A stretch of 47,806 nucleotides of DNA from Mycobacteroides phage 8UZL, in the sequence record OQ988004.1; one strand, written 5' to 3'. The translations under genes and the position numbers were made by a program. Positions 1 to 47,693 of the stretch are shown one piece after another. Within the stretch, counting starts at the first letter, position 1; each line of letters opens with the position of its first letter. The notes beneath the pieces were generated by a model that did no database searches, was not told the origin of the DNA, and worked only from the letters and a program-made list of their open reading frames with translations.

Positions 1-621
1 GGATGGCTCGGGATGGGGTGCTCCCCCTAGGGGTGGGGTGCCCCGGCCAGCAAACTTCTCAGCAAACGACGGGTCCATCCATCGCGGCACGAGCGCGGCG
101 CCTGGAACAGGGCGGACGAAGGCATCGCAGTCACCACACTTCCTGTTCCCTGCCCCATCCAAGTAATGCACCATGTCATGTGGGCATCGCCGCATCCGCT
201 CCACCTTGTCCTGCACCTCTGCCTCCTCCACTACCTCGTCTCCCGTCGTCGTCGGAGTATCGCCTTGATGTTCCCGAGCACCACATCACTAGGCGTATGC
301 CTATGCGTGCCATCATCAACACATCGAATGATGTCACCGAGGGCGTCACGATCACGCTTGAGGCGTCGCAATAATGACCCCGTCACATACACACGATTGT
401 TACCTGTCATGGCACAACCACCTTGAATGTGATACCCCTTGTTCTGATGTGTGGTACGCATGCCCATAGGTGCACGCTATGTTCTACCCACCCATACACA
501 GGGGACCATGAGTGGATATATACCAGGCCTGCATAACGTGCCCGTATAGAGCGCCGTATATACGACACCCTATGTGGCTGGGTCATATCACGCGGATGCA
601 CATTGCGGTTTGTGTGGTATT

Positions 622-7811: not shown

Positions 7812-7826
7812 TATGATTACTGCATG
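7812..7826 (+). promoter_or_regulatory. putative leaderless promoter: -10 TATGAT, 6-nt spacer, ATG
   Basis: A TANNNT hexamer lies 6 nt upstream of the ATG of gene 7824. This matches the architecture of the minus-strand promoters at 20388 and 46966. No convincing -35. Confidence 0.3.
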
Positions 7827-8282
7827 ACAACCGCACTAACATTACCCGCATTGCCCAGCTTGTTGCACAACGAGGGTTATGCTGAATACTTCAAACGGAA
7901 CATCCGTTGCTTCCGCTCGACCGATCCCAACAAGTGGCAGATCGCTGCTGTCACGCACGAAGGGAAATGGCGAAACGGCTTCCGTCCGGACTTCCGGACA
8001 TCGTGGGAAGCCACCAAGAAGTTGTGGCACTCGGGTGAGTATGCGGACATCGCCATCATTGCCCGCAATCGCGTCTTCAGTACTCCCCGTGATCTCGCCG
8101 AGGAACTCTGTGCACCGGGCCAGGAATGGTGCGGTCGTTGTCGCCGCCCGACGGAGTTCCGTCTATACCTGAAGACTCATCATGCCCTCAAGCACGCCCC
8201 CGTGATCGTTCCCGGGTTGATGCGTTGTTACTATTGCGGGATCAGCCGGGAGGCTGCCCTCAATACTTACGGGAAGGGATGA
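7824..8282 (+). CDS. Cys-rich hypothetical protein (start MTTALT)
   Basis: First gene of the rightward block. The internal Met is chosen because upstream codons overlap the primase gene on the other strand. CGRC and CYYC pairs. Confidence 0.5.
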   Translation: MTTALTLPALPSLLHNEGYAEYFKRNIRCFRSTDPNKWQIAAVTHEGKWRNGFRPDFRTSWEATKKLWHSGEYADIAIIARNRVFSTPRDLAEELCAPGQEWCGRCRRPTEFRLYLKTHHALKHAPVIVPGLMRCYYCGISREAALNTYGKG

Positions 8283-8671: not shown

Positions 8672-8835
8672 CCACTCCGGGTGTGACCACGTCTACCGAC
8701 TTCTTCCTACAACGGTAAGTCCTCTTCCTTGGCACCGACAGCGCTTGGTCTTCAAGTCGTATTGCTTCGTAGCCAATAGATGGATAAGAGTCAGCGTGAC
8801 CCGGTCATACTTCTGGGACGGCAATAGAGCAGCCG

Positions 8836-12244: not shown

Positions 12245-12246
12245 TC

Positions 12247-13559: not shown

Positions 13560-15879
13560 CGATCTGATCTTCATGGGCTGCGCGCCGTCGCAATACGACG
13601 GTGAGTTCTCTAAGGCAGACCTGAAAGAGTTGCGTGCCACTTTCCAGGAGAATGTCCTACAGCACCATGCAGACGCCATTCTCGCCCTTGGTAATGAGGC
13701 TCTCTTCATCACCACAGGACACAGCGGCATTATGAAGTGGCGCGGTCGAGCACAGGACCAGGTGATCCCGCTTCATCCTGACCTCCTCGTCATGCCGACC
13801 ATTGCCCTTGGTGCTATCGACCGCAACCCGTCACAGATTCAACTGCTGTACGCTGACATTCGAGCGCTCCACACCGAGCTATACGGCAGTGAAGACAAGC
13901 AGGTCAAGCCGAGCAAGGTCCACATCATCAAGGACGAGAAATCGCTCGAGCAGTTCGGTGTGGCAACGAAGACAGCGAAGGCGGTTGCATATGATCTGGA
14001 AACTTCTGGATTTAATGAGCTCGAGGATGGCGCGTTCATCGTCTCTGCAGCATTCTCTCTCCTCGATGAGGATGGCACGATGTCCTGCTGGGCTCTTCCA
14101 CTCTCCCATCCCCGGTCTCCATGTCGATCCAATTGGGACAGCATTCTTCGCCGTGCTACCGACGCTTGTAAGCGGGTACCTGTGCGGGTTGCTCACAATG
14201 CAAAGTTTGATTGTCGCTGGCTGGTTCAGTTTGGAGCACCTCTACCTTGCAACTTTGATACTATGCTGGCAGCTCATATCCTTGACGAGAACCGATTTAA
14301 GGGTCTTAAACCCCTATCACAGATGCTGCTGAACGCGCCGGCATGGGACATTGACATCAAGGGCGGCAAGAATGCTGAGCCCTGGTACATGCAGCATACT
14401 CTCCGGGAGATTCTTCAGTACAATGCACTGGACACCTGGCATACTCTTCGGCTATATCGTCTATTCAGTTCTGAGCTTCGCTCTGATCCTCGGCTGGAAC
14501 GACTCTTTGAAAAGCTCATCATGCCGGCTTCTCAGAGTCTCGTACACATTGAGCGAAGAGGCGTTTATGTGCATCGAGAGAAACTTGATGAAGGTGCTAA
14601 GCTGGTCGAGGAAAAGCTCCAGGAGATTCACGATGGCCTTATGGAGTATGTGCCGGAAGGGGTGACCGATGTCAACTTCAACCCTTCCAACTTCCTTCGC
14701 TGGTTCCTCTACGATCACCTCGATCTACCTGTGCTCAAGGAAGGCAAAACAGGTCCCAGCGTCGCTGAGACGGTCCTCACTCAACTCGCCGCGACAAATC
14801 CACACCCCGCTGTCGATCTACTGGTCGAGCGGGTCAAGTGGCAGAAGTTCCAGTCGTCCTTCTTCAACCCTTACCGGGAGCTGATTACCGATGATTCCCG
14901 TCTCCATACGACGTTCAAGCTGGCCGGGACAGTTACGGGTCGATTGTCTTCTGGGAAGGCAGACTCAGATAAAGTTACTGGTTCTAAAGCGTCATCTGTG
15001 CGAGGTATCAATCTACAACAGGTTCCTCGGGATCCACTTGTACGCAGCATATTCGGTGCTCCCCCGGGTTGGTCTTTTGTGGAGGCTGACTACTCGCAGA
15101 TCGAGTTACGGGTGGCAGCTGAGATCTCGGGCGAACCGACCCTCAAACAGCTCTACATAAACGGGGAAGACGTTCACATGGCTATGGCCATGAGGATGAC
15201 CGGGAAGCCTGCTTCTCAGGTGACCAAGGAAGAGCGCAAGAAAGCGAAGGCAGTGAACTTCGGATTCTTGTATGGGATGGGATGGAAGAAGTTCATTGAA
15301 ACTGCCTGGAATAATTACGGACTACGTGTCTCTCCTGAGGAAGCTCAAGCTGCTCGAGGAGCCTTCTTCGGACAGTTCCCCGAACTGCTCAAGTGGCATG
15401 CACGACAGCGACGACTCGCCCACCGGAACTCCCGAGTGCAATCCCCCTTGGGTCGCATCCGCCACCTGCCGGATATCAAATCTCCCGAGTCCGGTGTCGT
15501 CGCTGAAGCTGAACGTCAATCTATTAATTCCCCGGTCCAGGCGTTCGCGAGCGATCTGTGCCTTCTCAGTCTCGTCCTCCTCGACCGACGCTTCCGTCGA
15601 GATAAGCTCGCAGCCAGTCCTATTGGGACTGTCCACGACGCAATCAACTTCGAAGTCCGGAACGATCACCTCCCGATGGTCTTACCAACCATCAAACGAG
15701 TTATGGAGAATCCGCCACTCGGTCCACTCTTCGACTTCGTTCCCGGAATACCCATCGTTGCTGACATCAAGGTGGGTGACTCCTGGGGTGGAGCTGATGA
15801 GATTCCTGGACACCTGGTACACGAACCGGACGCGCTCGAAGCTTGGCTTAACGAGAGAGGACTCCTAGATGCCGCTTGA
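13468..15879 (+). CDS. DNA polymerase I (family A) with 3-5 exonuclease and an N-terminal UDG family-4-like domain
   Basis: Exo motifs YDLETSG and HNAKFD. Pol motifs RRLAHRNSRVQSPLGRI, KAVNFGFLYG and TVHDAINFEV. The N-terminal ~110 aa resemble family-4 UDG (FMGCAPS ... LALGNEAL ... HPD). The start may be 13522 instead, because 13468 overlaps the deaminase gene by 92 nt. Confidence 0.9.
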   Translation: MKIVVLTKFVLRGSLREEMIRRVKSQGFRDDDLIFMGCAPSQYDGEFSKADLKELRATFQENVLQHHADAILALGNEALFITTGHSGIMKWRGRAQDQVIPLHPDLLVMPTIALGAIDRNPSQIQLLYADIRALHTELYGSEDKQVKPSKVHIIKDEKSLEQFGVATKTAKAVAYDLETSGFNELEDGAFIVSAAFSLLDEDGTMSCWALPLSHPRSPCRSNWDSILRRATDACKRVPVRVAHNAKFDCRWLVQFGAPLPCNFDTMLAAHILDENRFKGLKPLSQMLLNAPAWDIDIKGGKNAEPWYMQHTLREILQYNALDTWHTLRLYRLFSSELRSDPRLERLFEKLIMPASQSLVHIERRGVYVHREKLDEGAKLVEEKLQEIHDGLMEYVPEGVTDVNFNPSNFLRWFLYDHLDLPVLKEGKTGPSVAETVLTQLAATNPHPAVDLLVERVKWQKFQSSFFNPYRELITDDSRLHTTFKLAGTVTGRLSSGKADSDKVTGSKASSVRGINLQQVPRDPLVRSIFGAPPGWSFVEADYSQIELRVAAEISGEPTLKQLYINGEDVHMAMAMRMTGKPASQVTKEERKKAKAVNFGFLYGMGWKKFIETAWNNYGLRVSPEEAQAARGAFFGQFPELLKWHARQRRLAHRNSRVQSPLGRIRHLPDIKSPESGVVAEAERQSINSPVQAFASDLCLLSLVLLDRRFRRDKLAASPIGTVHDAINFEVRNDHLPMVLPTIKRVMENPPLGPLFDFVPGIPIVADIKVGDSWGGADEIPGHLVHEPDALEAWLNERGLLDAA

Positions 15880-16885
15880 CACCGATAACCTGATCATTAC
15901 CAACAGCCTCCTGAAGTCATTCCGGAGCTGTCCTCGAAAAGCACTCTACAAGTACATCGAGTTGGTGACACCGAGGCAGAAGTACTCACAGCCTCTTGAG
16001 CGTGGGTCCTGGTTCCATGAACTGCTCGAGGCCCGGTACAAGGGTGAAGACGTGAAAGCGGTCCACACCGCGCTGTGCGAGAAGTATCACGACCTGACAG
16101 ACGAGGAGAAGGACACGCTCGGTGACCTGCCTCGTGAGATGCCTCGCCTGTACAACTCCTACAACTGGTACTATCGCGGCGACAAGTCGTGGGAAGTGCA
16201 CGAAGTAGAAATGAAGGTCGAAGCTGAACTGCCGAATGGCCTTCAATACCAAGGCAAGATCGACATGCTCATCGAGGACGAGTACGGACTCTGGGCCGTC
16301 GACCACAAGACCCACAAGCGACTGCCCTCGCTCGACTATCGCTACCGAGACACTCAGTCAGTCCTCTACATCTGGGCACTACGCGAGTGCGGTATCCCGG
16401 TCAAAGGCTTCATTTGGAACTACGTCGTCCCGACTGCCCCCGAGCCCTTGAAGATCAAGGTTCGCGGCGGGCTGTATGCGCGTCAGCCGATCACCGACTA
16501 CCCGACCGCACTCAAAGGACTGAAAGCTGAGGGACTTGAGAATGAGCCCGAGTACGCGGAAATCCTCAAGCAGCTGAAGACGATTCGGTACGAGTACGGG
16601 GCTACCCAGAACAGCCCTGTGTTTCGCCGTGACGTGCTCGAAAAGCACGACGACATGATTGCTCGCACACTCGCAGAAGCGACGTACACCGCCGACAGGT
16701 TCGTTGACTACGCTTGGGAGAATAAGAACGCAGTCGAGAGGCTGAATGATCGGTCTTGTGACTGGTGTGAGTACAAGTACTTGTGCATTGCCGAGCTCGT
16801 CGGAGTCAATTCCGATAACGTACGACGACAGATGTACAAGAAAGCAAATCCCTTGGCCTACTACGAGGAGAAGGACCGGAAGTGA
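15869..16885 (+). CDS. Cas4/RecB-family PD-(D/E)XK exonuclease
   Basis: Motif DMLIEDEYGLWAVDHKTHK (D..E.K). C-terminal Cys cluster CDWCEYKYLC, as in Cas4-type Fe-S nucleases. Confidence 0.75.
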   Translation: MPLDTDNLIITNSLLKSFRSCPRKALYKYIELVTPRQKYSQPLERGSWFHELLEARYKGEDVKAVHTALCEKYHDLTDEEKDTLGDLPREMPRLYNSYNWYYRGDKSWEVHEVEMKVEAELPNGLQYQGKIDMLIEDEYGLWAVDHKTHKRLPSLDYRYRDTQSVLYIWALRECGIPVKGFIWNYVVPTAPEPLKIKVRGGLYARQPITDYPTALKGLKAEGLENEPEYAEILKQLKTIRYEYGATQNSPVFRRDVLEKHDDMIARTLAEATYTADRFVDYAWENKNAVERLNDRSCDWCEYKYLCIAELVGVNSDNVRRQMYKKANPLAYYEEKDRK

Positions 16886-17727
16886 CCCGACCCATTCGCC
16901 GCAACGTGCGAGCACAGACGACACCGGGGAAGGATTACGCCGCGATTGCGGCCAGTAAGATCACGTCCCCGTCCAAGCTTGCCGAGAAGAACGGTCAGAT
17001 GAGACCCCCTCGGATCCTCGTCTATGCCCGCAACAAGAAGGGCAAGACACGCTTCACGATGTCTGCCGGCAAGGGCAAGATCCTGATCGTTGACCCAGAA
17101 CGCGGAACTGATCGCTTCATCAAGGCCGATCCTGCTGTGTGGCATTTTGAGGCCTGGGAAGAGATGGAGGATATCTACCAGTTCCTTCGCTCGGGCAAAC
17201 ACAACTACGAGTGGGTGGCGCTTGACGGTCTCACCAAGATCTCAACCATGGCGCTGCGATACATCACTCGGAATGCCGAAGAAGCCGACCTCACGCGCCG
17301 CCCAGGGCTCGTTAAGCTGCAGGACCGAGGCAACGCCGGCGAGCTGGTCAAGACGATGCTCGACAAATTCCACACGCTGGACATGGGCATCATCTACACC
17401 GCGCAGGAGCGGCAGGTAGAAGCGAACTTCGATGACGAAGAAGACGAGGAGTTCGAGGGCGGGTCCATCCAGTATGTCCCAGACTTGCCCAAGGGCATCC
17501 GTGCGGCCGTCAACGGTATTGTGGACGTTGTAGGCCGTCTGTACACCGTGAAAGTACCCGGAGAGGAAGGAACCGATGTAGTCCGACGCCGCCTGTGGCT
17601 GGCCCCATCCGTGTCCTATGACACCGGCGCCCGATCAGAATACAAACTCCCCGATTACCTGGAGAGCCCAACCGTTCCCCGACTGGTGGGACTAATGGAA
17701 GGAAAGAAAGTAAGTGGCAACAAGTAA
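16882..17727 (+). CDS. RecA-fold ATPase (Sak4/AAA_24-like recombination protein)
   Basis: Walker A-like ILVYARNKKGKTRF, Walker B WVALDGL, acidic internal stretch. It lies between a nuclease and an SSB-like gene. Confidence 0.55.
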   Translation: MTRPIRRNVRAQTTPGKDYAAIAASKITSPSKLAEKNGQMRPPRILVYARNKKGKTRFTMSAGKGKILIVDPERGTDRFIKADPAVWHFEAWEEMEDIYQFLRSGKHNYEWVALDGLTKISTMALRYITRNAEEADLTRRPGLVKLQDRGNAGELVKTMLDKFHTLDMGIIYTAQERQVEANFDDEEDEEFEGGSIQYVPDLPKGIRAAVNGIVDVVGRLYTVKVPGEEGTDVVRRRLWLAPSVSYDTGARSEYKLPDYLESPTVPRLVGLMEGKKVSGNK

Positions 17728-18361
17728 GGCAAAAGCCGAGATCATCGACTTCTCCAACGTCAAGGAGCGCGGGAACTACCAGCCCAAGCACGTGGCGGCC
17801 GGCGATTACCGGGGGAAGATCACCAAGGTGGTGGACGATCCGGCCAAGGACGGCACGAAGATGTGGACGTTCACCATCGAGTCCCCGGAGATTCCTCGTG
17901 CAACCTACCCGTACTACTGCAAGCTCGCCGAGAACCAGTTCTTCAAGTTGAAGTCCTTGTTCGAGGCTGCCGGCACGTCGGTGGGCAAGCGCAAGGTGAA
18001 GGTCGACCCCAACCGTCTGATCGGCAAGGAGATCGGCTTCGCGCTCGAAGACGACGAGTACGAGGGTCGGATGAAGTCCGTCATCGTTGAGGTGTTCCCG
18101 GCCAGCGAGGTCGGCGATGCGCCGGAGGACGACGAGGAAGAGGACGAGGACCTCGAGCCCGACGCGGACGACGAGGAAGAGGAAGAAGCCGAGGAGGAGC
18201 CGGAGGAAGACGCCGAGGAGGAAGAGGAAGAAGAGCCCGAGCCCCCGAAGCGTCGGAAGGCGCCGGCGAAGAAGGCTCCTACCAAGCGTGCTGCCAAGAA
18301 GGCGGCTGTCGAGGACGAGGAAGAAGAGAACCTCGAAGACCTCGACATTGACGAGCTGTAA
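17714..18361 (+). CDS. putative ssDNA-binding protein with a long acidic tail
   Basis: GTG start. ~130-aa globular N-domain, then a poly-Asp/Glu tract, a KAPAKKAPTKRAAKK stretch, and a terminal EDLDIDEL. Confidence 0.4.
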   Translation: MATSKAKAEIIDFSNVKERGNYQPKHVAAGDYRGKITKVVDDPAKDGTKMWTFTIESPEIPRATYPYYCKLAENQFFKLKSLFEAAGTSVGKRKVKVDPNRLIGKEIGFALEDDEYEGRMKSVIVEVFPASEVGDAPEDDEEEDEDLEPDADDEEEEEAEEEPEEDAEEEEEEEPEPPKRRKAPAKKAPTKRAAKKAAVEDEEEENLEDLDIDEL

Positions 18362-18511
18362 GGAGTAGTCACACGATGAATGGGAACCAGTCGAGGTACT
18401 TCTCCAACGCGGAGGGCTTCGGCTATCGGCTGGATTCCGGGGAGGTGGGAGCTTCCGGGCTCCCCACTCTTCGGGCTGCAATGGATCACTTCGAGAAGGG
18501 ATTGTTCGATC

Positions 18512-18769
18512 ATGGCGGAGCAGAAGAAGGACGCGGAGAAGAAGCCGCGGAAGACGGTGGCAGCAGTGTCAGCGGAGCTGAACGACCTGCAGGACGTGGC
18601 GAAGACGCGCCAGACGAGGATCAGGGATCTGGAGATTCAGATCCAGAAGATCCGGGACTTGGTGAAGACGCAGCCAGCCCCGAACTCGACCCTGCAACAG
18701 GATCACTACCGGCTGAGTAACGTCGTGAAGGACATCCGCAAGCTCGTGGGGCTCCCGGTCGATGGGTAA
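18512..18769 (+). CDS. small coiled-coil protein (start MAEQKKD)
   Basis: Internal Met chosen. The upstream part of ORF 18380 overlaps the previous gene and has no RBS context. Confidence 0.35.
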   Translation: MAEQKKDAEKKPRKTVAAVSAELNDLQDVAKTRQTRIRDLEIQIQKIRDLVKTQPAPNSTLQQDHYRLSNVVKDIRKLVGLPVDG

Positions 18770-19157
18770 GAAGCAGGTCTCCAAGAAGGAGGCCAAGATC
18801 CTCGAGCTGAAGGCCCAGAAGGCTCACCTTCAGGCGGCGAACTACCACCTCCAAGGACAGCTCGAGCAGGTGGACGAATTGCTTCGGAAGGCTGAGTTCA
18901 CCGGCACCAGTGAGCGGGCCTGGCTGCAGTCGTTCCAGGCACTCGTTCTGCACCTGGCGCGGATCCGAGGTATCGGGCCTACCCCATTCCTCGACTTCTC
19001 GCCGCAGCCGCTGCCGATGTCAACGCACGATCCGCGAACGGGGCAGCCGCTCGTGAACGTCCCAGAACAGGGTCTGATTGACCGCCTCGTCGCCGAAGAC
19101 AGCGCCGCCGGTACACATACCCTGATGAGCACCGACGAGGTCTCAGATGCAACCTGA
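18762..19157 (+). CDS. hypothetical protein (131 aa)
   Basis: N-terminal coiled coil. 8-nt overlap with the upstream gene. Confidence 0.4.
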   Translation: MGKKQVSKKEAKILELKAQKAHLQAANYHLQGQLEQVDELLRKAEFTGTSERAWLQSFQALVLHLARIRGIGPTPFLDFSPQPLPMSTHDPRTGQPLVNVPEQGLIDRLVAEDSAAGTHTLMSTDEVSDAT

Positions 19158-19431
19158 GGCCCGGATAGGACAGAAGATCAGGAAGTACCTCGAGGACGAC
19201 CTCGGCGCGTTCGTCTTCAAGGTGCATGGCGGCCCGCAGATGATGGCAGGCCTTCCCGACCTGATCGCGTGTTATCGCGGTACGTTCTGGGGCATCGAGG
19301 TCAAGCAGCCAGGGCAACGTCCCACACCGAGGCAGGAGTGGGTGCACTCGATGATTAAGCGCGCCGGCGGGTCCGTCATCGTTGCCACGTGCGTCGAGGA
19401 CGTCTCGAGTGTGATCTACGATCCGGTCTAG
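19147..19431 (+). CDS. VRR-NUC domain nuclease
   Basis: PD-(D/E)XK variant motif GLPDLIACYRGTFWGIEVK. Last gene of the rightward block. Confidence 0.65.
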   Translation: MQPEARIGQKIRKYLEDDLGAFVFKVHGGPQMMAGLPDLIACYRGTFWGIEVKQPGQRPTPRQEWVHSMIKRAGGSVIVATCVEDVSSVIYDPV

Positions 19432-19723: not shown

Positions 19724-19753
19724 TGGTGGGCCTTTCGTCGTCGTTGTGCTTAG

Positions 19754-19783
19754 AGTGTACCACCCCCACGCCAGTGATGTCAA
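19754..19783 (-). promoter_or_regulatory. putative sigma-A-type promoter (-35 TTGACA, 18 nt spacer, -10 TACACT)
   Basis: Minus-sense TTGACAtcactggcgtgggggtggTACACTctaagca. The leader contains the TCTAAGCA and ACGACGACGAAAGG elements. Confidence 0.4.
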
Positions 19784-20193
19784 GGGTTCACGTCAAGATT
19801 CTTGAGAGCGATAAAGAAGGCCTCTCCTTCGTCGGGTTGCACGCGAGCACGCATACCGAAGTCCGAAGCGCCGAGCCAGGTGATCTCGCCGGTGATGCCC
19901 TTCGGGATCTTGCGTCCCCGCGCAACGATGACCTTCTGCCCAACGATCAGCTCGCCGGCAGCGATGCTTCGCGCCTTGGCATCCTGGTACAGCTCGATGT
20001 CCTTCTCGTCGCAGCGATGCTGCGGGAACCAGCAGGAGTACACGTGGCGCGGGTTGCCTGCCTCGGTGTAGTAGTCGCGGGTGTCGAACACCTTGCCGTC
20101 AGCGCGTCGTGCGACCTTGCGCCCGCAACGCTTGCAGTTCTGTTCCTTCGCTTCGTCGGAGTGATTGACGCCGTTGCAGAAGATGAGAGACAT
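19780..20193 (-). CDS. hypothetical protein (137 aa) with CxxC ... C ... C
   Basis: Minus-strand ORF. CKRCGRK suggests a Zn-ribbon at the N-terminus. Confidence 0.45.
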   Translation of the reverse strand: MSLIFCNGVNHSDEAKEQNCKRCGRKVARRADGKVFDTRDYYTEAGNPRHVYSCWFPQHRCDEKDIELYQDAKARSIAAGELIVGQKVIVARGRKIPKGITGEITWLGASDFGMRARVQPDEGEAFFIALKNLDVNP

Positions 20194-20381
20194 CAGATTG
20201 CCTCGATCTGAATGCTCAGGACGGACGGCATGTAGATCGTTGCGTCATCCCAACGGACCTCGACGTTGACCTTGCCCGAAGGCAGGGGCTTGTAGTAATG
20301 GACGAAGGTGCCAGTCAGGCGAGGAGCGCCGATCATGCGGACGCGGTCGTTGGCGGAGAAGGTGTTCGTCGTCATGTTCAT
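20193..20381 (-). CDS. hypothetical protein (62 aa, starts MNMTTNT)
   Basis: Leaderless context. Its N-terminus and upstream 15 nt are nearly identical to those of gene 46636-46959. Confidence 0.45.
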   Translation of the reverse strand: MNMTTNTFSANDRVRMIGAPRLTGTFVHYYKPLPSGKVNVEVRWDDATIYMPSVLSIQIEAI

Positions 20382-20387
20382 GCTTAG

Positions 20388-20416
20388 ATCTTACCAAAGA
20401 GCCCCGAGCTTTGCAA
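20388..20416 (-). promoter_or_regulatory. putative leaderless promoter (-35 TTGCAA, 17 nt spacer, -10 TAAGAT, 6 nt, ATG)
   Basis: Minus-sense TTGCAAagctcggggctctttggTAAGATctaagcATG. Confidence 0.45.
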
Positions 20417-20440
20417 CCCGGGGACTCAGAGGTTTTGGGA

Positions 20441-20830
20441 TCAGGCGTTGATCTCCTCGACACGCATGGCGCGCCCATTGACCTTGAGCTCCTTGTCAGT
20501 CATGTGTGGCACGTCCAGCTTGACTTCACGGAGGCGGGCGTTCAGGCGCTCGAGGCGGGCACGCTGTTCAGCAGCGAAGGCAGCCTTCTTGCTCGGATCA
20601 TTGAGCCACTGCAGCGGCAAGCCCTTCGAGCCCTCGCCCAGCCCGTCGCCGTCGTCCTTCGCGTTCGGCTTCGCGAGTGCCTCCCAGTAGGCATCCTTCA
20701 TCGCCATAACTTCGTCGTGCGAGAAGTCGTAGCGGGAGCCCGATCCCACACCCGACTTCGACTTGCGGAGGAAGGTGCGCAGAGCCTTGGGCTTGATCCC
20801 GATAACGCGAGCGGCTTCGGTGGTGTTCAT
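20441..20830 (-). CDS. helix-turn-helix DNA-binding protein
   Basis: N-terminal MNTTEAARVIGIKPKALRTFLRKS is a classic HTH. It shares an RYDFS motif with gene 20973-21353. Confidence 0.55.
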   Translation of the reverse strand: MNTTEAARVIGIKPKALRTFLRKSKSGVGSGSRYDFSHDEVMAMKDAYWEALAKPNAKDDGDGLGEGSKGLPLQWLNDPSKKAAFAAEQRARLERLNARLREVKLDVPHMTDKELKVNGRAMRVEEINA

Positions 20831-20871
20831 GTCGTCGTCCTTTCGAGAGGGTTTCGTCGTCGTGCAAGTAC

Positions 20872-20913
20872 AGTCTAAGAGACGGTCGTCGTCGTGTCAA
20901 CCGGGCGTGTCAA
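20872..20913 (-). promoter_or_regulatory. putative promoter with tandem -35 TTGACA boxes and -10 TAGACT
   Basis: Minus-sense TTGACAcgcccggTTGACAcgacgacgaccgtctcTTAGACT. 17-nt spacing from the proximal -35. The leader carries ACGACGACGAAA and an SD GAAAGGA. Confidence 0.45.
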
Positions 20914-20927: not shown

Positions 20928-20957
20928 AAAAAAAGGGCCCTCCCGGAGGAGGGCACC
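20928..20957 (-). terminator. intrinsic terminator for minus-strand transcription
   Basis: Minus-sense GGUGCCCUCC-UCCG-GGAGGGCCC followed by a U7 run, 15 nt after the stop of gene 20973-21353. Confidence 0.65.
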
Positions 20958-21466: not shown

Positions 21467-22687
21467 TCAGCGCCGGAAAGCCGCCATGATGTCACAACCA
21501 ACCTGGATGCCGGTTCGCCCGCCGAACTCGGGCTTGGGCAGGTGGTACTCTCCATGTGTCTGCACGCCCGAGATCTGAGTGAGCAAGCGGATCAGCTGAG
21601 GCAGGTTGGTGAGCACACCTTGGATGGACAGCAGCTCGATGAGCTTTGGGTTGGGCTTCTTGTTTGTGCCGGCAACACCACTGATGAGCGATCCGATCAG
21701 CGACATAGGCAGCCCTGTGGCTCCTGCTAACACGCCAGCAGCCAGCGGGTTGGTGATACCGCCCAGGCCCGACAGAAAAGGCGCCACAAGGTTCAGCAGC
21801 GCCGGGATGATGATCTGCGCGGTGTAGATGACGAAGGGAAGCTCTGTCTCAGCTTCCACGAACCACTCATAGAACAGTGGACGGATCTCGTCGTCACAGG
21901 CAGCGTAGAAGTCAGGAGCACCGGGACTCGTCGCCACGATGTCCGTCACAAGCTCTCGAAGCCACACAGGACGTGTTTTGCGAGCGATGCCCCAACCGGG
22001 CGCAGGACCGCTGTTCTTCTGACGTGAAGGATTGCCGAACTGGATGAGCCCGTTGATCCGCTCGCGGATGTCTCGGTACTTGCCCGCCTCGTCACCAAAC
22101 AGTCGTTGGACCGCGTCCTCCATCCCGTCCGCTGACTGGGAGTAGCCTGAGAACCACAGCTCCAGGTCCGGGTCGTTGATGTCTGGGTTATGGTCGAGGC
22201 AGTACTCGAGCGACAACCCCTGATCCCAGATAACGTCCTGATACGAGAACGCCGGATCCCCGCCGAGCAGGCCAAGGTATCCGCCCTTCTGGAAGTACAG
22301 CGGCTGGTGATTGATCTTCAGCACGTTCTTGGCGAACTCACCCACCTCGAACGACGGGCCTACCCACCAGTCAGCTCCTGATCCCGGTGCGGTGTAAATC
22401 CAGATCTTCCGTCGCTCGACGACGACACCGCCCGCCCATGGGCCCTTGTTGTATCCCACACGGGAGGCTGTCGCGTCATCGAACCGACCGGTGACGGGCA
22501 GACCCAGGCGACTCTGCATGATCTTGACGGCAGCTTCATCGGGAGCGCCATAGTACCCATCGACTGGGGGCGCATACGACGAGGCATAGCGGTTGAACCA
22601 CTCCTGCCACTGGGTTACATCAGATCCGGAGGATCCGACTTTGAACTCTGGCATTCTTTCTTCCTGTCCCTGCGTTGGTGCTGCCAT
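21467..22687 (-). CDS. lysin B (mycolylarabinogalactan esterase) with N-terminal peptidoglycan-binding domain and a C-terminal hydrophobic extension
   Basis: PG_binding_1-like segment VTQWQEWFNRY ... LGLPVTGRFDDATASRV. Serine esterase pentapeptide GYSQS. The last ~110 aa are hydrophobic or amphipathic. Confidence 0.7.
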   Translation of the reverse strand: MAAPTQGQEERMPEFKVGSSGSDVTQWQEWFNRYASSYAPPVDGYYGAPDEAAVKIMQSRLGLPVTGRFDDATASRVGYNKGPWAGGVVVERRKIWIYTAPGSGADWWVGPSFEVGEFAKNVLKINHQPLYFQKGGYLGLLGGDPAFSYQDVIWDQGLSLEYCLDHNPDINDPDLELWFSGYSQSADGMEDAVQRLFGDEAGKYRDIRERINGLIQFGNPSRQKNSGPAPGWGIARKTRPVWLRELVTDIVATSPGAPDFYAACDDEIRPLFYEWFVEAETELPFVIYTAQIIIPALLNLVAPFLSGLGGITNPLAAGVLAGATGLPMSLIGSLISGVAGTNKKPNPKLIELLSIQGVLTNLPQLIRLLTQISGVQTHGEYHLPKPEFGGRTGIQVGCDIMAAFRR

Positions 22688-23076
22688 AGCGAGAGGAGCA
22701 TGCCGAGCATACCCAACACGCCACCCGAGTAGATGACAAACCGCACATACTCACGTCCCGGGTAATCAGACTGGGTCCATACCGAGAAGCAGGCCTGGAT
22801 CAGCGTAAGCGTGAGTAGTACCGAAAAGAGTGCGAAGATCTGGCCAATCTTGTTGGCCCTCCAGTTTGCCCACCCGATATACCTGATGGTAAAGCAAGTA
22901 GACAAGAAGGCAAGGTAAATCAGACTGAGGTTCGCGCCGAGCTTATAGTCTTCGTTGTCCATCCAGGGATCTGCCGCGAGGGTACCGACAATTCCCAGTA
23001 CGCCCACTAGATAAACCCAACGCATCAGTGAACCTCTCCTCGGCCGTGGAAGGCCTCGCTGAACAACTCCGACCAA
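22615..23076 (-). CDS. membrane protein (about 4 TM segments)
   Basis: Hydrophobic helices (LVGVLGIVGTLAA, LSLIYLAFLSTCF, LFSVLLTLTLIQACF, VLGMLGMLLSLW). Located inside the lysis cassette. Confidence 0.5.
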   Translation of the reverse strand: MVGVVQRGLPRPRRGSLMRWVYLVGVLGIVGTLAADPWMDNEDYKLGANLSLIYLAFLSTCFTIRYIGWANWRANKIGQIFALFSVLLTLTLIQACFSVWTQSDYPGREYVRFVIYSGGVLGMLGMLLSLWQHQRRDRKKECQSSKSDPPDLM

Positions 23077-23228
23077 CTGTTCTTGTTGATCTCAGCGAGC
23101 TTGGCACTTGAGGCTTCACGGGATCGAGCAAGAAGCTGATTTACCGACTTGCGCCGTTCGTCAGCTTCCCGCTCAGCTGCTTCTGCCCGCTCCACCTGTC
23201 GCTTCCCCCAGTTCCACGGCCACATCAC
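23025..23228 (-). CDS. hypothetical protein (67 aa)
   Basis: Small ORF that overlaps the neighbouring gene by ~50 nt. Weak. Confidence 0.3.
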   Translation of the reverse strand: MMWPWNWGKRQVERAEAAEREADERRKSVNQLLARSREASSAKLAEINKNSWSELFSEAFHGRGEVH

Positions 23229-23509
23229 GTCGCCCCCTCTTTAGACGACGTCCACAGATCCCGGATAGCAGTGAGAATCCGTGTGGTCGCTTGGTCCTCT
23301 GCCACCTTTTCGGTGATAGTTCGGCTCAGGACGTCGATAGTTTCAGCATCTTTCTGGGCTCGCGCATCCAGTCGCTCAACTGTCTCTCGATGATACCGAC
23401 CGATCACCAGCCACCCTCGAACAAGGGCGACGACGAAGAACACACAAGCAAGCACCGAGAGGCCGACAGGGCCGATGTTATTCCAGAAGTCTGCTGACCA
23501 CCATGTCAC
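23225..23509 (-). CDS. membrane protein (1 N-terminal TM)
   Basis: N-terminal LSVLACVFFVVALVRGWLVIG TM helix, then a charged helical domain. Holin-associated position. Confidence 0.4.
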   Translation of the reverse strand: MTWWSADFWNNIGPVGLSVLACVFFVVALVRGWLVIGRYHRETVERLDARAQKDAETIDVLSRTITEKVAEDQATTRILTAIRDLWTSSKEGAT

Positions 23510-23724
23510 TCCTCCCCGCCCTTCTGCCTCATCTGGCTACCCAGATTGGCGGCAGCAGTTGCATTGCCCACCATCCCGATGGCTCCCAGCAGTGTCAGCC
23601 AGTACGGGACTGCCTCGGCCTCAACGATGCCGTAGTACACGAGCAGACCCATGACGGCCACACAGACCGAGTAGAAGTAGAGACGGAACTTGTCACTTTT
23701 GACAAACTCCCAGAACTTGGTCAC
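23506..23724 (-). CDS. holin-like protein (2 TM)
   Basis: 72 aa with two hydrophobic helices and a charged C-terminus. Immediately downstream of lysin A. Confidence 0.5.
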   Translation of the reverse strand: MTKFWEFVKSDKFRLYFYSVCVAVMGLLVYYGIVEAEAVPYWLTLLGAIGMVGNATAAANLGSQMRQKGGEE

Positions 23725-24668
23725 GCTTCCTCCTTGGCGATAAGTGACGCTACCCCATCAACGAGGTAGCGATTCTTTCCTTCGGGAGTCTGGCCGAGCT
23801 GTGGCCAGCCTTCTGCCTTCGGGCCGAAGTGCTGCTCCCAAACCTGCTTGACCATCTCGTCGGTCGACGGATAGACGAACGAGGGGACAACAGGAGGAGG
23901 CGGTGAGGTCGGCTCAGTCGCCCCATCGAGGATGATTCCGTACGTCGCCAAGCGCTGCTTCGTCTCGGGCCCGACGATACCGTCCACACCGATCAGCGAA
24001 CGCCGTTGGAACTCCTTGACCGCCGACTCAGTGAAGGCACCGAAGATGCCGTCTTCGTCGAGAGGCATGGCCTTGTAGTTCCGGAAGACCTTGTTCATCC
24101 CGGCCTGGAGCTTGCGCACCTGATCGCCCTCGGAGCCGAGCTGCAAGTAGCCCTCAGGGATCACGACAGGCGGCGGCGCAGTGCCATCCGCGTAGATACC
24201 CCAGAGGCCGTTGCGCAAGTCCGTAGCGAGCTGCTCAGTGCCGGCATGGCCCTCCGCGAAGTGGAGCTCAAAGTGCATCTCGTCACGCGGTGAGGTCCAG
24301 TCGCCGCCGAACTCGACAATGCCCCGGAAGTCCTTGATGACCTGATCCACTGCGGGGCGCTTGCTACCCCACGTTCCCCACTTCTGGTAGGGATGAAGGT
24401 TCCAGTTGTAGTCGATGGCAGTAGCAGAGTTGTGATTGCTGTTCGCCATCGAGTTCGACGAGGTGTAGCAGCCGATCTGTGTGGTAATCATCGGTTCGAT
24501 CCGATGCAGGCGCCAGATGAGCGCCTTGAGGATCACCGACGGGGCACCCTTGCGAACACCGAGCTTGAAGTCTGTTCCGGGGATCGCTGAGTAATCCAGC
24601 TCGGCGGTGTCGCACATTCGCCAACCATTCTCAGAGATCCAATACCCCTGCTTCTGAATAAAGGCCAT
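23721..24668 (-). CDS. lysin A (endolysin): M15/VanY-like peptidase domain plus peptidoglycan-binding domain
   Basis: SNHNSATAID matches the SxHxxGxAxD zinc-peptidase motif, followed by DEMHFELH. Central PG-binding-like repeat LQLGSEGDQVRKLQAGMNKV ... DGIFGAFTESAVKEFQ. Confidence 0.8.
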   Translation of the reverse strand: MAFIQKQGYWISENGWRMCDTAELDYSAIPGTDFKLGVRKGAPSVILKALIWRLHRIEPMITTQIGCYTSSNSMANSNHNSATAIDYNWNLHPYQKWGTWGSKRPAVDQVIKDFRGIVEFGGDWTSPRDEMHFELHFAEGHAGTEQLATDLRNGLWGIYADGTAPPPVVIPEGYLQLGSEGDQVRKLQAGMNKVFRNYKAMPLDEDGIFGAFTESAVKEFQRRSLIGVDGIVGPETKQRLATYGIILDGATEPTSPPPPVVPSFVYPSTDEMVKQVWEQHFGPKAEGWPQLGQTPEGKNRYLVDGVASLIAKEEA

Positions 24669-24682
24669 TCTGGCTGTCCTTC

Positions 24683-25045
24683 CTATTCCCCCCGATACTT
24701 GAACTGCGGTGTCACGTCCACCTTGAACTCCTGGGACCCGTCGTTGACGGTGAGCGACACCGGCAGCGCTTCGGTACGCAACAGCGTTGACCCGTTGAAG
24801 ATCCCGTAGCGATTGATGACAGCCCCATTGCTGACCGTTCCGCCCGGCACTGTAATGGTCACTGTGGAGCCGGTAGAGACAGCCTTGTCAACTCCCCCTT
24901 CCGTGACCTTCGCAGCACCACCCCACGTGGTATCGGCATACACCGTTCCCACCCGGGTAGTGTCCATGTAGAGCCCGATCCGATTGCCGAGCGCCACGAT
25001 GGCATTGGCGCAGGCATTCCGGTGAGCATCTTGATAAACTGCCAT
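24683..25045 (-). CDS. minor tail protein (120 aa)
   Basis: Position at the distal end of the tail module. Beta-rich composition. Confidence 0.45.
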   Translation of the reverse strand: MAVYQDAHRNACANAIVALGNRIGLYMDTTRVGTVYADTTWGGAAKVTEGGVDKAVSTGSTVTITVPGGTVSNGAVINRYGIFNGSTLLRTEALPVSLTVNDGSQEFKVDVTPQFKYRGE

Positions 25046-25054
25046 TTACCTCTC

Positions 25055-26080
25055 CTATTGACTCGCCCGGATCCATGCTTGACCTCGAGCACCTGCACCA
25101 CCTGCTGCTAGCGTCACAGTCGCTGCTGCACCGCCACCACCAGGAATTTTGCCGGCAGCACCGGCTGAACCTTGCTGAGCGCCACCGTTGTAAGACTGTC
25201 CCTGGAAAGTGATGTTCCCAGGAGACTTACCAGCAGTATCCAAGTTACTTTGGGTACCACCAGCACCGCCGGCCCCAGTCAGTGTGCCCCACCCGGAAAT
25301 GGTGATAGTCGTTGCACCGCCGGCAGATCCACCGCCGCCACCAGTACCGCCGTTACCTCCATTGCCAATGACGATGGTAATGGTGATCGCAGTCCATGGA
25401 ATATCGACGCCTCGCTCGAGACGAACGTAGTTCCACGAACCGGCAAAGCCACCCTGTCCCCAAACACCGAACAGCGGCATGCCCTTACCGCCACCGCCGC
25501 CACCGAGAACGATGAGGTCAATATAGCGGCACTGCACGGGAATGGCGTAGGTACCAGACGCAGTGATGACTGTAGTAGTCGCAGTCATCGGCGAAAAGCC
25601 GCCCGTTGCTACGTCCTGTCCCACACCCGAGTCAGCGACATTCGCCTTCGCGGTGAAGCCAGCTAGATCAGTACCGACCGCCGAGTCGAAGATCCCGTAG
25701 GAGGGCTTGAACGAACTCAACAGGTCTGTACCGATACCGCTGTCAGCAATCCTCAGGCTAAGACTCAACAAGTCATCAGCACCGACGCCAGAGTCTGCTG
25801 CAAGCAGACCCAGACGCGCTAGATCTTCACCCACGCCCGTGTCACTTGTACTGATCAGGTGATGCGCAAGCGCGAGGTCCGACCCGAGGCCTGCATCCGA
25901 CCCGAGTAGCATAGGAACCATTGAAGCTACATCTTCGCCGATACCTTCATCTCTGAGCTTCCTCGAGATACGAACTTCCCACTCAGTCAAGACATTTGAC
26001 GGAAGAACCGGCGGACGCGAGGTCGACCACTCTGGCTTGATGATGGGATCAGTTGGTGTAGTAGTCCACCCCTGCTCCAT
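25055..26080 (-). CDS. glycine-rich minor tail protein
   Basis: Gly-rich repeats (GGGGGKG, GNGGNGGTGGGGGSAGG, GAGGAGG). Typical of actinophage tail fibres. Confidence 0.65.
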   Translation of the reverse strand: MEQGWTTTPTDPIIKPEWSTSRPPVLPSNVLTEWEVRISRKLRDEGIGEDVASMVPMLLGSDAGLGSDLALAHHLISTSDTGVGEDLARLGLLAADSGVGADDLLSLSLRIADSGIGTDLLSSFKPSYGIFDSAVGTDLAGFTAKANVADSGVGQDVATGGFSPMTATTTVITASGTYAIPVQCRYIDLIVLGGGGGGKGMPLFGVWGQGGFAGSWNYVRLERGVDIPWTAITITIVIGNGGNGGTGGGGGSAGGATTITISGWGTLTGAGGAGGTQSNLDTAGKSPGNITFQGQSYNGGAQQGSAGAAGKIPGGGGAAATVTLAAGGAGARGQAWIRASQ

Positions 26081-26089
26081 CCTGGTCTC

Positions 26090-28408: not shown

Positions 28409-28411
28409 TAC

Positions 28412-46635: not shown

Positions 46636-46959
46636 TCAGGCGATTGCCTTACGGATCGAAGCCTCGGACAGTTTGGCGATAGAGGTCTTCTGCTTGCGGG
46701 TGAGGTCAACGATGGCGATGATCTGATCGTTGGTGTAATCCACACCCAGGTCCTGCAGGCGAGCAATCGCCGCGGGGGCCTGCTTAGGCAGGGGAGCAGG
46801 CAGGAGGTTCGAGCGGTTGATGCCCAGCTCCTCGATGATCTGCTCCTTCTTGGCCTCCACGCGGGCGGCACGCGCCTTGCGGCATTCCTTACGTGCAGCG
46901 GGCGTGAGCGGGTGGCCGCAGTGCTTGTGGGAGAGGCGGGTGTTCGTGTTCGTCGTCAT
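46636..46959 (-). CDS. hypothetical protein (107 aa, starts MTTNTNT)
   Basis: Leaderless context identical to gene 20193-20381. Basic N-terminus. Confidence 0.45.
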   Translation of the reverse strand: MTTNTNTRLSHKHCGHPLTPAARKECRKARAARVEAKKEQIIEELGINRSNLLPAPLPKQAPAAIARLQDLGVDYTNDQIIAIVDLTRKQKTSIAKLSEASIRKAIA

Positions 46960-46965
46960 GCTTAG

Positions 46966-46995
46966 ATCTTAACAGAAGCCTTGGGGGTTGCGCAA
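46966..46995 (-). promoter_or_regulatory. putative leaderless promoter (-35 TTGCGC, 18 nt spacer, -10 TAAGAT, 6 nt, ATG)
   Basis: Minus-sense TTGCGCaacccccaaggcttctgtTAAGATctaagcATG. 15 nt are identical to the element at 20379-20393. Confidence 0.4.
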
Positions 46996-46999: not shown

Positions 47000-47269
47000 T
47001 TACGTCAGAAGACTTTCGATGATGTCAGGCGTGAAGCGTGGGTCATTGACCTCGTCTCGGTAGATCTCCACGTCTTCGTTGCCGGCGAAGGTGAACTTGC
47101 CGCTGATGTACGTCTTGCCCTTCCAGCCCATGGGCTCGCCGATCACCGGGAGATGCTTCGGGCAGACGACGACGATCCGGACAGTGCCGTTCGGGTGTCG
47201 CGTGAGCGTGAAGATCTTGCGACCGCGGTAGTAGTCACCAGGTACGAGCTCAATGGCTTTGACTTTCAT
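47000..47269 (-). CDS. hypothetical protein (start MKVKAIELV)
   Basis: Internal Met chosen. Upstream codons are Arg-rich and overlap the next gene. Confidence 0.4.
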   Translation of the reverse strand: MKVKAIELVPGDYYRGRKIFTLTRHPNGTVRIVVVCPKHLPVIGEPMGWKGKTYISGKFTFAGNEDVEIYRDEVNDPRFTPDIIESLLT

Positions 47270-47592
47270 CGGGTCACCTGATCCTCGGGCAGCGCGTCCT
47301 GTGCGACGGCCACGAGCACACCAATCTCTTCGTCGGTGTCGTTGTGATGCCACACCACCCGGTAGTAGTGATCGCCGGTGACGGCGCCCGGGTTGAGTTC
47401 GTCGGCGGGTACGAGGGAAAAGTCCTTCATCGAGAGCCCAAGTGGGGAGGTAAGGAAGAGCTTGATGCAGCGGGCCTCGCCCGGGAAGGTGTAGGGGTCA
47501 GGATCAGAGTCTTCGGCTTGGCTAGCAAAGTAGAGCTCGAAGAGCGTGTTGCCAGCGGGTACGTTGTCGGGGGTCCATCCGTTCGTCGTCAT
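47266..47592 (-). CDS. hypothetical protein (start MTTNGWTPD)
   Basis: Starts ATGACGACGAAC, the same opening as three other leftward genes. Confidence 0.4.
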   Translation of the reverse strand: MTTNGWTPDNVPAGNTLFELYFASQAEDSDPDPYTFPGEARCIKLFLTSPLGLSMKDFSLVPADELNPGAVTGDHYYRVVWHHNDTDEEIGVLVAVAQDALPEDQVTR

Positions 47593-47693
47593 GCCATCAG
47601 TATATCGGACCTCGCCCAAGCGCCGCAAGGGTGGGCGCCGTCAGCAAAGAATCTGGCTAGCCCAGCAAACAAACCCCAGCGCCGCAGATCAAG

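Follow-up and report, generated by a model that had tools for sequence, protein, structure and literature searches.

For leaderless translation in mycobacteria, an ATG or GTG at the 5′ end of the mRNA is both necessary and sufficient, and roughly one transcript in four is leaderless (Shell et al. 2015, PMC4633059). The early promoters of mycobacteriophages are often SigA-like (PMC9262239). A short repeat at phage gene starts is known from Cluster K, the SAS (GGGATAGGAGCCC), which is 13 bp in length, is located 3-7 bp upstream of start codons where it overlaps the ribosome-binding site, and is present in many copies per genome (Pope et al. 2011, PMC3203893). Its function is unknown, and its authors propose that an RNA or protein of the host or the phage may act at it (PMC3203893). 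CA repeats downstream of the start codon enhance the translation of both leadered and leaderless mRNAs (Martin-Farmer and Janssen 1999, as cited in PMC9031893), and ACA motifs are translation enhancers that are silenced by the G/U-rich small RNA GcvB (Yang et al. 2014, PMC3879156). Here we describe a family of predicted promoters in a stretch of 47,806 nucleotides (nt) from Mycobacteroides phage 8UZL (OQ988004.1; the whole stretch to be referred to as the window), together with a short element, AC(G/A)ACGAA(C/A), that follows their predicted transcription start sites.

The window corresponds to a Mapvirus mycobacteriophage genome in reverse-complement orientation. Its nucleotide identity is ~99% to FF47 in the regions tested and 92-95% to Muddy, and Maco2, Maco6 and Maco7 are also close. 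The gene numbering is transferred from the annotations of Muddy and FF47, and we take this phage group to be SEA-PHAGES Cluster AB. With moderate confidence, we read the features described here as a family of promoters for the host RNA polymerase (sigma-A), joined to a portable, U-poor 5′ (ACR)n expression cassette in a lytic Mapvirus phage.

Predicted promoters and gene starts

Five sigma-A-type promoters are found on the sense strand. Three of them (P1, P3 and P35) are predicted to be leaderless and two (P34 and P37) have short leaders, and there is a sixth, leaderless candidate at 7824 on the plus strand. P35 (20364..20416, minus strand) is located between gene 34, encoding a helix-turn-helix (HTH) protein, and gene 35, and reads TTGCAA-17-TAAGAT-CTAAGC-ATGAACATGACGACGAAC in sense. 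The -35 hexamer TTGCAA (20416..20411) and the -10 hexamer TAAGAT (20393..20388) are separated by a 17-nt spacer, and the discriminator CTAAGC (20387..20382) leads directly into the leaderless ATG at 20381. A second, in-frame ATG is found at 20375, followed by the element ACGACGAAC at 20372..20364. P3 (46948..46995, minus strand), between genes 2 and 3, reads TTGCGC-18-TAAGAT-CTAAGC-ATGACGACGAAC, with the -35 TTGCGC at 46995..46990, an 18-nt spacer, the -10 TAAGAT at 46971..46966, the leaderless ATG at 46959 and the element ACGACGAAC at 46956..46948. The promoter of gene 1, P1 (47581..47628, minus strand), had been missed by the original prediction. It reads TTGCGG-18-TATACT-GATGGC-ATG, with the -35 at 47628..47623, an 18-nt spacer, the -10 at 47604..47599, the leaderless ATG at 47592 and the element ACGACGAAC at 47589..47581. 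The sixth candidate, P53 (7812..7826, plus strand), has the -10 TATGAT (7812..7817), TACTGC and the ATG at 7824 (ATGACAACC), and a poor -35; this TATGAT-TACTGC-ATGACAACC arrangement at 7812-7826 is present as it had been described earlier.

The two leadered promoters have more canonical hexamers. In P37 (19724..19783, minus strand), the -35 TTGACA (19783..19778) and the -10 TACACT (19759..19754) are 18 nt apart and are followed by CTAAGC and a predicted +1 A at 19747; ACGACGACGAA at 19744..19734 then runs into the Shine-Dalgarno (SD) sequence GAAAGG in front of the ATG at 19723. P37 matches the consensus at 10 of 12 positions. P34 (20831..20900, minus strand), the promoter of the HTH gene 34, has the -35 TTGACA (20900..20895), 17 nt, the -10 TAGACT (20877..20872), a predicted +1 G at 20865, ACGACGACGAA at 20863..20853 and the ATG at 20830. 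It is annotated as a promoter in the FF47 record, and it contains two extra copies of the element, ACGACGACG in the spacer (20895..20887), 32 nt upstream, and GACGACGAC just before the ATG (20839..20831). Sites matching at least 10 of the 12 consensus positions in the whole window are limited to P34, P37 and a candidate, P8 (42256..42285, minus strand; TTGACA-18-CATAAT), which is the best match in the window (11/12) and overlaps the stop codon of gene 7.

The gap between the -10 hexamer and the ATG is exactly 6 nt at 20381, 46959, 47592 and 7824, with TAAGAT in P35 and P3, TATACT in P1 and TATGAT in P53. A motif-free scan for TANNNT-N5-7-RTG finds three sites with a TTGNNN -35 at annotated starts, and these are genes 1, 3 and 35. 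For the next three patterns, the expected numbers were obtained from 300 dinucleotide shuffles. The leaderless geometry (TTGNNN-16..19-TANNNT-N6-ATG) is observed three times, where 0.34 is expected; for -10-N6-ATGACRAC the numbers are 3 and 0.02, and for the promoter together with the element they are 5 and 0.003. The leaderless sigma-A reading made in the original prediction is borne out at the level of the DNA by this geometry, by the exact gap and by its retention in the phages NoShow and JacoRen57. In their -10 hexamers and in the spacing, the units fit actinobacterial leaderless transcription units, with start sites that are predicted.

P35 and P3 share the 15-nt string CATGCTTAGATCTTA, which is found at only these two places (20379-20393 and 46957-46971), even when two mismatches are allowed (expected 0.03; none of 100 shuffles). 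Both copies read in sense as a -35, 17-18 nt, TAAGAT, CTAAGC and ATG, and the proteins open with MNMTTNT (gene 35) and MTTNTNT (gene 3), as had been proposed. The shorter string TCTAAGCA has three matches (expected 0.57), every one at the promoters noted before, including 19754..19747 at the predicted start of TTGACA-18-TACACT. ACGACGACGAA also has three matches (expected 0.06), two of them in the gene 37 and gene 34 leaders and the third, on the opposite strand, within the loop of an inverted repeat at 42150-42212. The two 15-nt copies had been described as a duplicated module. However, their spacers are unrelated, and their exact identity is peculiar to the window phage, the P35 discriminator being CTACGT in Muddy, while FF47 and the Maco phages have CTTCAC. 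A recent duplication of one promoter is therefore rejected. Instead, the copies belong to a promoter family sharing a core, and would be the cores of two members of a small host sigma-A family. The string ATGACGACGAAC, which had been assigned to the starts of four genes, has three exact copies (47592, 46959 and 20375). In gene 35, it begins at codon 3 (20375) and not at 20381, and it is absent from gene 34 (20830, ATGAACACCACC).

Motifs of this type are enriched near gene starts, as the original prediction implied. Within -40..+15 of a start are 10 of the 28 sense copies of ACGACGA (8.1% expected, p = 4e-5) and 5 of the 10 copies of ACRACGAA (p = 6e-4). In addition, ACGACGA shows a strand bias, with 28 copies in sense and 11 in antisense.

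Pairing with the anti-SD sequence was scored at 72 start sites. Typical genes have values of -8 to -13 kcal/mol, in comparison to -4.5 for gene 3, -4.7 for the long form of gene 53 and -6.4 for gene 35. Genes 3 and 53 (long form) are thus among the weakest of the 72 starts, and gene 35 is in the weakest quarter. The score of gene 1 derives from a GAGGT that is too far upstream to serve as an SD sequence. The Muddy annotation places the starts of genes 3 and 35 on the leaderless ATGs, and several other annotations would be corrected under the leaderless reading. The annotated TTG start of Muddy gene 1 (47628) is the TTG of the P1 -35 hexamer, and the annotated start of FF47 gene 3 (46860) is 99 nt downstream of the leaderless ATG. 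The FF47 record has an overlapping ‘gene 34A’ (20478-20332) in place of gene 35, and gene 35 is missing from the Maco records because these are linearised within it. Gene 53 in both Muddy and FF47 starts at a TTG (7863) that has no SD sequence (+0.9 kcal/mol), instead of at the ATG at 7824; the PHROG profile spans the long form from 7824 (7824..8282, plus strand).

A -10-like hexamer is also found 6 nt before the ATG of gene 56 (285 amino acids (aa); TAAAGT-ACTGCT-ATG, 5625-5645, minus strand), directly after the stop codon of gene 55 and with a poor -35. This could be a further internal leaderless start or a chance match.

The 5′ (ACR)n tract, its spread and its putative mobility

All five sense-strand copies of ACRACGAA[A/C] in the window are located just downstream of the predicted starts of P1, P3, P34, P35 and P37. 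The element begins at about +3/+4 in four of the promoters and at +10 in P35 of the window, as a result of a 6-nt ATGAAC insertion that is absent in the relatives. Since it follows the transcription start in leaderless and leadered promoters alike, the element goes with the RNA 5′ end, or with promoter-proximal DNA, and not with the start codon. The proposal of a conserved 5′ element thus stands, with its anchor moved to the predicted transcription start. The proposal of co-regulated genes with a private operator is weakened, because the promoter-plus-ATGAC(G/A)ACGAAC module is reused in the Gordonia phage GodonK and ~20 other high-GC viral contigs. The sequences ATGACGACGAACACGAACACC and ACAACGACGACGAAAGG are free of U after the ATG or +1, giving an A/C-rich tract next to the start in both leadered and leaderless mRNAs. 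The element has no dyad symmetry.

Two explanations for the tract were rejected. Selection for the MTTN peptide is not compatible with the presence of the element in untranslated leaders, nor with Thr codons that are skewed to ACG/ACA against an ACC-rich background. Protection from RNase E is not expected of a tract that holds several cytidines, as the mycobacterial enzyme cuts 5′ of cytidines (PMC10641625).

ACG repeats are found at two gene starts of the window that have no associated promoter. ACGACGACG is located directly upstream of the SD sequence of gene 71 (GTG at 231; 231-252, minus strand), and gene 48 (10893, plus strand) starts with ATGACGACG after a normal SD sequence.

The module is also found well outside this phage group, in unrelated phage-like DNA of GC-rich and probably actinobacterial origin. 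A search of viral contigs with TANNNT-N6-ATGACRACGAACA gives 73 matches in 70 contigs. Although the query contained no -35, TTGACA is present at 17-18 nt without mismatch in six of the 73 and with a 5/6 match in another two. All of these -35-bearing matches are in high-GC contigs, upstream of open reading frames of 65-108 aa. The module is reused 2-4 times each in three viral contigs (L064, L042 and L010) and in GodonK, which has a 122-kb genome; L064 had no match among the phages in GenBank. The full composite has 20 matches in 18 viral contigs, mostly in front of unrelated proteins, and by a rough estimate the number expected by chance is well below one.

The codons of these starts are biased as well. 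In a set of 24 high-GC leaderless starts of the MTTN type, 19 use ACG for the second Thr, compared to a background usage of 35%, and ACC-ACC is found once, compared to ~18% expected. Of 64 high-GC leaderless starts with ATG-ACN-ACG, 25 continue with ACG or ACA and 7 with AAC. The skew of the Thr codons and the (ACR)n extension indicate a constraint on the nucleotides, such that the element in the window is the local form of a general 5′ (ACR)n tract. From their sequences, the bias and the extension in those contigs point to a generic 5′ tract that is tuned to the host machinery.

More than 120 matches of the composite in bacterial genomes collapse to two orthologous host genes and were rejected as independent evidence; they show that the hosts use and conserve the arrangement. 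TTGACA-16..18-TANNNT-N6-ATGACRACGAAC is located upstream of a protein of ~250 aa (MTTNP.ITSSVRLDDLI...) in ~100 Streptomyces genomes (one per species), and the same composite is located upstream of a flavin monooxygenase (MTTNDVEIAIIGAGFSG...) in ~10 Gordonia genomes. Both are apparently conserved leaderless host genes.

Within the phage group, P35 is found in every close relative (Muddy, FF47 and Maco2/6/7) as TTGCAA-17-TAAGAT-N6-ATGACGACGAA. P3 is retained in Muddy, FF47, Maco2 and Maco7, and its upstream part is homologous to the promoter of NoShow gene 40. In the distant phages NoShow and JacoRen57, the architecture is retained while the sequence is heavily diverged, with the element variant ACAACGAA. 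Examples are TATAGT-N6-ATGACAACGAAC and TTGACA-17-TAGGAT-N6-ATGACAACGAAC, together with leadered forms such as ACAACGAACGCACAACGAAAGG. The Gordonia phage Emalyn retains TATGAT-N6-ATG at a gene that is the positional homolog of gene 53.

The leaderless genes encode unrelated proteins, all of which open with MTTN. The divergence between gp3 of Muddy and of the window begins right after MTTN, and gp35 of the window parts from those of the relatives right after the module. Therefore, the promoter, the ATG and three or four codons behave as a cassette that is fused to different gene bodies. Gene 35 of the window is a divergent allele, unlike that of FF47, Muddy and the Maco phages. Its body is homologous to gene 57 of the Fishburnevirus GreaseLightnin, and its DNA (20193-20381) is ~72% identical to gene 57 of Fishburnevirus phages such as GreaseLightnin (L082 660-866). 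The GreaseLightnin homolog has a different promoter, a normal leader and a different N-terminus, and a palindromic, operator-like GGTTGGTATATACC...GGTATATACCAACC in front of it. Judged from these alignments, the gene 35 allele is a clear mosaic exchange. The position of the module exactly at mosaic junctions illustrates how promoter-plus-start cassettes can pass between phage genes.

Two promoters of JacoRen57 (about 48500-48580 and 49130-49200) retain TATGAT, followed by ATGACAACGAA(A/C), the SD sequence GAAAGG and a downstream ATG. Relative to the 5′-terminal upstream AUG, this ATG is in frame at one promoter and out of frame at the other. Such 5′-terminal upstream AUGs on leadered mRNAs suggest that the leaderless and leadered forms of the module interconvert.

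In the model that we propose, the host RNA polymerase would start at the A of the ATG in P1, P3, P35 and probably P53, and 70S ribosomes would translate the leaderless mRNAs, while P34 and P37 would give mRNAs with short leaders. In the leaderless genes, the tract AC(G/A)ACGAA(C/A) would be read as Thr-Thr-Asn, forcing MTTN on otherwise unrelated proteins. The tract itself may act at the level of the nucleic acid, as a putative enhancer that keeps the 5′ end unstructured and A/C-rich and favors promoter escape and/or ribosome loading, by analogy to the CA/ACA translation enhancers. The promoter and the cassette together would be a mobile unit and a recombination junction, onto which gene bodies are grafted.

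The antisense hairpin and alternative explanations

The inverted copy of the element is located in a conserved hairpin (42150..42212, minus strand) in the leader between the protease and scaffold genes. The arms of the stem are GAAGGCACACC (42212..42202) and GGTGTGCCTTC (42160..42150), and in the 41-nt loop the sense RNA carries UUUCGUCGUCGU, the reverse complement of the 5′ element (ACGACGACGAA on the plus strand, 42173..42183). The whole intergenic region (258 nt, 42256..41999), at the head of which P8 is found, is nearly invariant in Muddy, FF47 and the Maco phages and is predicted to fold into several hairpins (z = -4.06), so that it looks like a conserved structured leader or a small RNA. 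A transcript from P8 would carry the antisense hairpin at about +38..+100. This leader has a further hairpin, CAGAGA-GCGGUAA-UCUCUG, which is CCAGA-GCGGUAA-UCUGG in JacoRen57. In NoShow (4743-4907), a very basic 54-aa open reading frame (MGKKGGGKKGGSRKSLK...) with a strong SD sequence follows directly after the hairpin; no equivalent exists in the window, whose leader is structured and non-coding at this point.

Over ~22 nt, the loop in the window, UCGAGAAGGGAUUUCGUCGUCGUC, comes close to being the reverse complement of ACGACGACGAAACCCUCUCGA, the leader of P34. NoShow and JacoRen57 have homologous hairpins, and their loops contain the reverse complement of their own variant element (GUUCGUUGU) and also of the SD (GAAAGGUUGACA) and leader (GAAAGGTTGACA) modules. 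The NoShow loop has exact matches of 15 nt and 14 nt to the leaders of genes 36 and 41. The stems have 100% of their cells paired, with three compensatory pairs across three lineages; this value is reached by 12 of 500 shuffles and by none of the slid controls. The hairpin folds have z = -4.1 and -3.6, with the element in the apical region, partly weakly paired in the predicted fold. A genome-wide duplex scan (~32,000 windows), which is noisy in such a GC-rich genome, ranks P34 8th and NoShow genes 36, 41 and 44 3rd, 7th and 12th. No comparable hairpin is found in the 49-nt protease-scaffold gap of Emalyn. On comparison of these lineages, the sequences support a real relationship between the hairpin and the element, which could be RNA pairing, in the way that GcvB silences ACA enhancers, or an inverted protein-binding site, possibly that of gp34.

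Genes 1-37 run from 47592 down to 19490 on the minus strand, the replication genes 53-38 are located at 7824-19431 on the plus strand, and genes 54-71 run from 7790 down to 1 on the minus strand. Gene 1 is at 47592..47266. Gene 3 (46636..46959, minus strand; 107 aa, opening MTTNTNT) is upstream of the terminase genes, and gene 35 (20193..20381, minus strand; 62 aa, opening MNMTTNT) belongs to phrog_6718. Gene 34 (20441..20830, minus strand) encodes an HTH DNA-binding protein, MerR-like according to the annotation of the relatives (phrog_15118, E = 1e-63). Relatives of gp34 were limited to Muddy in the viral-contig search, with none in the genome-contig search, and a tblastn search against GenBank phages gave JacoRen57 and Gordonia phages. 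No match was found in Pfam for the small proteins, no known RNA family was matched in Rfam at gathering thresholds over the whole window, and no repressor or integrase is annotated in the Muddy or FF47 records. A strong terminator-like hairpin (GCCCTCC...GGAGGGC and a T-run, 20937..20954, minus strand) closes the long left-arm operon just upstream of P34, and a weak one (20402..20423, minus strand) is located right after the stop codon of gene 34, with the -35 hexamer of P35 in its loop. Consequently, the center of the genome appears as a series of short transcription units. Sigma-70-like matches are depleted in the coding regions, with none in the structural genes (21600-41500; 5.6 ± 2.5 expected) and three in the replication and right-arm genes (1-19300; 7.2 ± 3.1 expected), which suggests selection against spurious promoters in coding DNA.

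Several observations weigh against a host-tuned promoter and cassette. The -35 hexamers of P1, P3 and P35 are moderate (TTGCGG, TTGCGC and TTGCAA; 3-4/6 at 17-18 nt) and are below the threshold of the stringent scan, and that of P53 is poor. The viral-contig surveys were seeded with the motif, which leaves only a partial control on how frequent the tract is among leaderless starts in general. The literature searched holds no mapped transcription start or expression data for Muddy, FF47 or Cluster AB. Moreover, a 5′ ATG alone is reported to suffice for leaderless translation (Shell et al. 2015, PMC4633059), which makes an enhancer dispensable. A cassette of this kind also does not predict the concerted, lineage-specific variant (ACGACGAA versus ACAACGAA), nor the covarying antisense copy in a conserved hairpin. 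The moderate -35 elements are also in line with genes 3 and 35 not being leaderless at all, being expressed instead by read-through transcription and weak internal ribosome-binding sites or coupling, with TANNNT and the start string as relics of recombination. The gaps to the upstream genes are only 40 nt and 59 nt (genes 3 and 35), there is no terminator between genes 2 and 3, a marginal GGTAAG is located upstream of gene 35 (-6.4 kcal/mol), and FF47 is annotated with other starts. Against this, the 6-nt spacing is exact at three or four genes and recurs in NoShow, JacoRen57, Emalyn, GodonK and many other contigs, with perfect -35 hexamers that the query had not asked for, the geometry is far above chance expectation, and the composite is conserved upstream of host genes in ~100 Streptomyces (one per species) and ~10 Gordonia genomes. 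Gene 35, in addition, needs its own promoter because a terminator-like hairpin follows gene 34. We consider such an explanation very unlikely.

The other two alternatives accept the promoters and assign a different role to the element. It could be a DNA operator, with the HTH protein gp34 binding to ACGACGACGAA-type sites at +3..+14 and in the P34 spacer and jointly shutting the promoters, including its own. Gene 34 is itself transcribed from P34, in which CACGACGACGA is found twice, 32 nt (three helical turns) apart, with the third copy GACGACGAC before the ATG, and the overlap of the sites with the transcription start is typical of repressors. The variant of the element shifts in concert across all promoters within a lineage, and from one lineage to another the HTH protein has an identity of only 58%. 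A DNA site that works either way round would fit the inverted copy at 42173-42183. However, the module recurs in GodonK and other high-GC contigs, where the fetched parts hold a gp34 homolog only in the contig of Muddy, besides a weak partial match in L023. The tract runs on as a generic (ACR)n in many unrelated contigs, the element is asymmetric and its binding by gp34 is putative, and a site in duplex DNA leaves the compensatory stem around the inverted copy unexplained. An operator is a doubtful explanation. Alternatively, the element could be an RNA target, with the G/U-rich loop of the scaffold/capsid leader pairing with the (ACR)n 5′ ends of early mRNAs and causing GcvB-like silencing or decay that would help to time the early-to-late transition; this would be compatible with the cassette that we favor. 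Its evidence is the near complementarity of UCGAGAAGGGAUUUCGUCGUCGUC to the P34 leader ACGACGACGAAACCCUCUCGA, the agreement of the NoShow and JacoRen57 loops with their own variants and SD module, including the exact 15-nt and 14-nt matches in NoShow, and the high ranks in the duplex scan (P34 8th of ~32,000 windows; NoShow genes 36, 41 and 44 3rd, 7th and 12th). The three compensatory pairs, the fold scores (z = -4.1 and -3.6), the apical position of the element and the 11/12 promoter just upstream point in the same direction, and there is the precedent of ACA enhancers silenced by a G/U-rich small RNA (PMC3879156). On the other hand, the covariation statistics are thin with three lineages only (12/500 shuffles reach the observed value), the scan is noisy, the element is partly weakly paired in the predicted fold, and reverse complementarity would be expected just as well if the copy were an inverted site for a protein or a leader relic in inverted orientation. 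As a general account of the element, an RNA target is improbable. The specific proposal that the hairpin at 42212..42150 is an mRNA-embedded antisense regulator, by which the late leader RNA would silence early mRNAs, including that of gp34, and time the early-to-late switch, is likewise a long shot. If true, it would be a phage-encoded, mRNA-embedded ‘anti-enhancer’ in the lytic mycobacteriophage group that includes Muddy.

Comparison with known systems

There is nothing unusual in the leaderless promoters as such; what deserves attention is the (ACR)n cassette, with its spread and its role at mosaic junctions, along with the covarying antisense hairpin. The (ACR)n tract with its codon bias may reflect a rule, at the level of the sequence, by which leaderless genes are expressed efficiently in Actinobacteria, beyond the sufficiency of the 5′ AUG, and the hairpin, if functional, would represent a novel form of temporal control. 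According to the cited literature, Muddy is of therapeutic use, and defined promoters for the host polymerase, whose activity and timing in the window are predicted, could be starting points for engineering Muddy-type phages (payload expression, attenuation).

The units in the window resemble the leaderless units of actinobacteria (Shell et al. 2015, PMC4633059) in having TANNNT 6 nt before the ATG, weak SD contexts at some of the starts, an open reading frame conserved from the ATG and a Mycobacterium host. They differ in being a small, phage-borne family with predicted starts and a shared tract at +4..+12 that forces MTTN. Like the SigA-like early lytic promoters of mycobacteriophages (PMC9262239), they have -35 and -10 hexamers for the host RNA polymerase and are located upstream of small non-structural genes. 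Those described are usually paired with repressor operators in temperate phages, however, whereas the Muddy and FF47 records have no annotated repressor or integrase. One member of the family, P3, is upstream of the terminase and structural genes. The stoperators of Cluster A (13-bp repressor sites; PMC9262239) are also asymmetric, with an orientation that follows transcription, and this likeness is consistent with a protein-binding role for the element. In comparison, there are dozens of stoperators, spread through operons and bound by a lysogenic repressor, while the copies in the window are few and the full ACRACGAA[A/C] copies in sense are all at promoters.

With the CA/ACA enhancers, the element shares an A/C-rich, U-poor tract on either side of the start codon, in leaderless and leadered mRNAs, and a complementary G/U-rich loop in the genome. 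Those enhancers are from enteric bacteria, whereas the tract here is based on ACG/ACA, is found in a high-GC actinobacterial setting and is a putative enhancer. GcvB is a free small RNA, whereas the putative antisense partner in the window is a hairpin within an mRNA leader. The SAS and ESAS of Cluster K (PMC3203893) are likewise short, asymmetric repeats that mark the 5′ ends of some of the non-structural genes. Essentially all copies have the same orientation, several genomes having one copy on the opposite strand, and they are retained across subclusters in front of unrelated genes. The SAS is not tied to promoters, in contrast to AC(G/A)ACGAA, for which the five sense copies are downstream of the transcription start, all at promoters. 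By its sequence and position, the element in the window is not a member of the SAS family, and the SAS is its closest described analogue.

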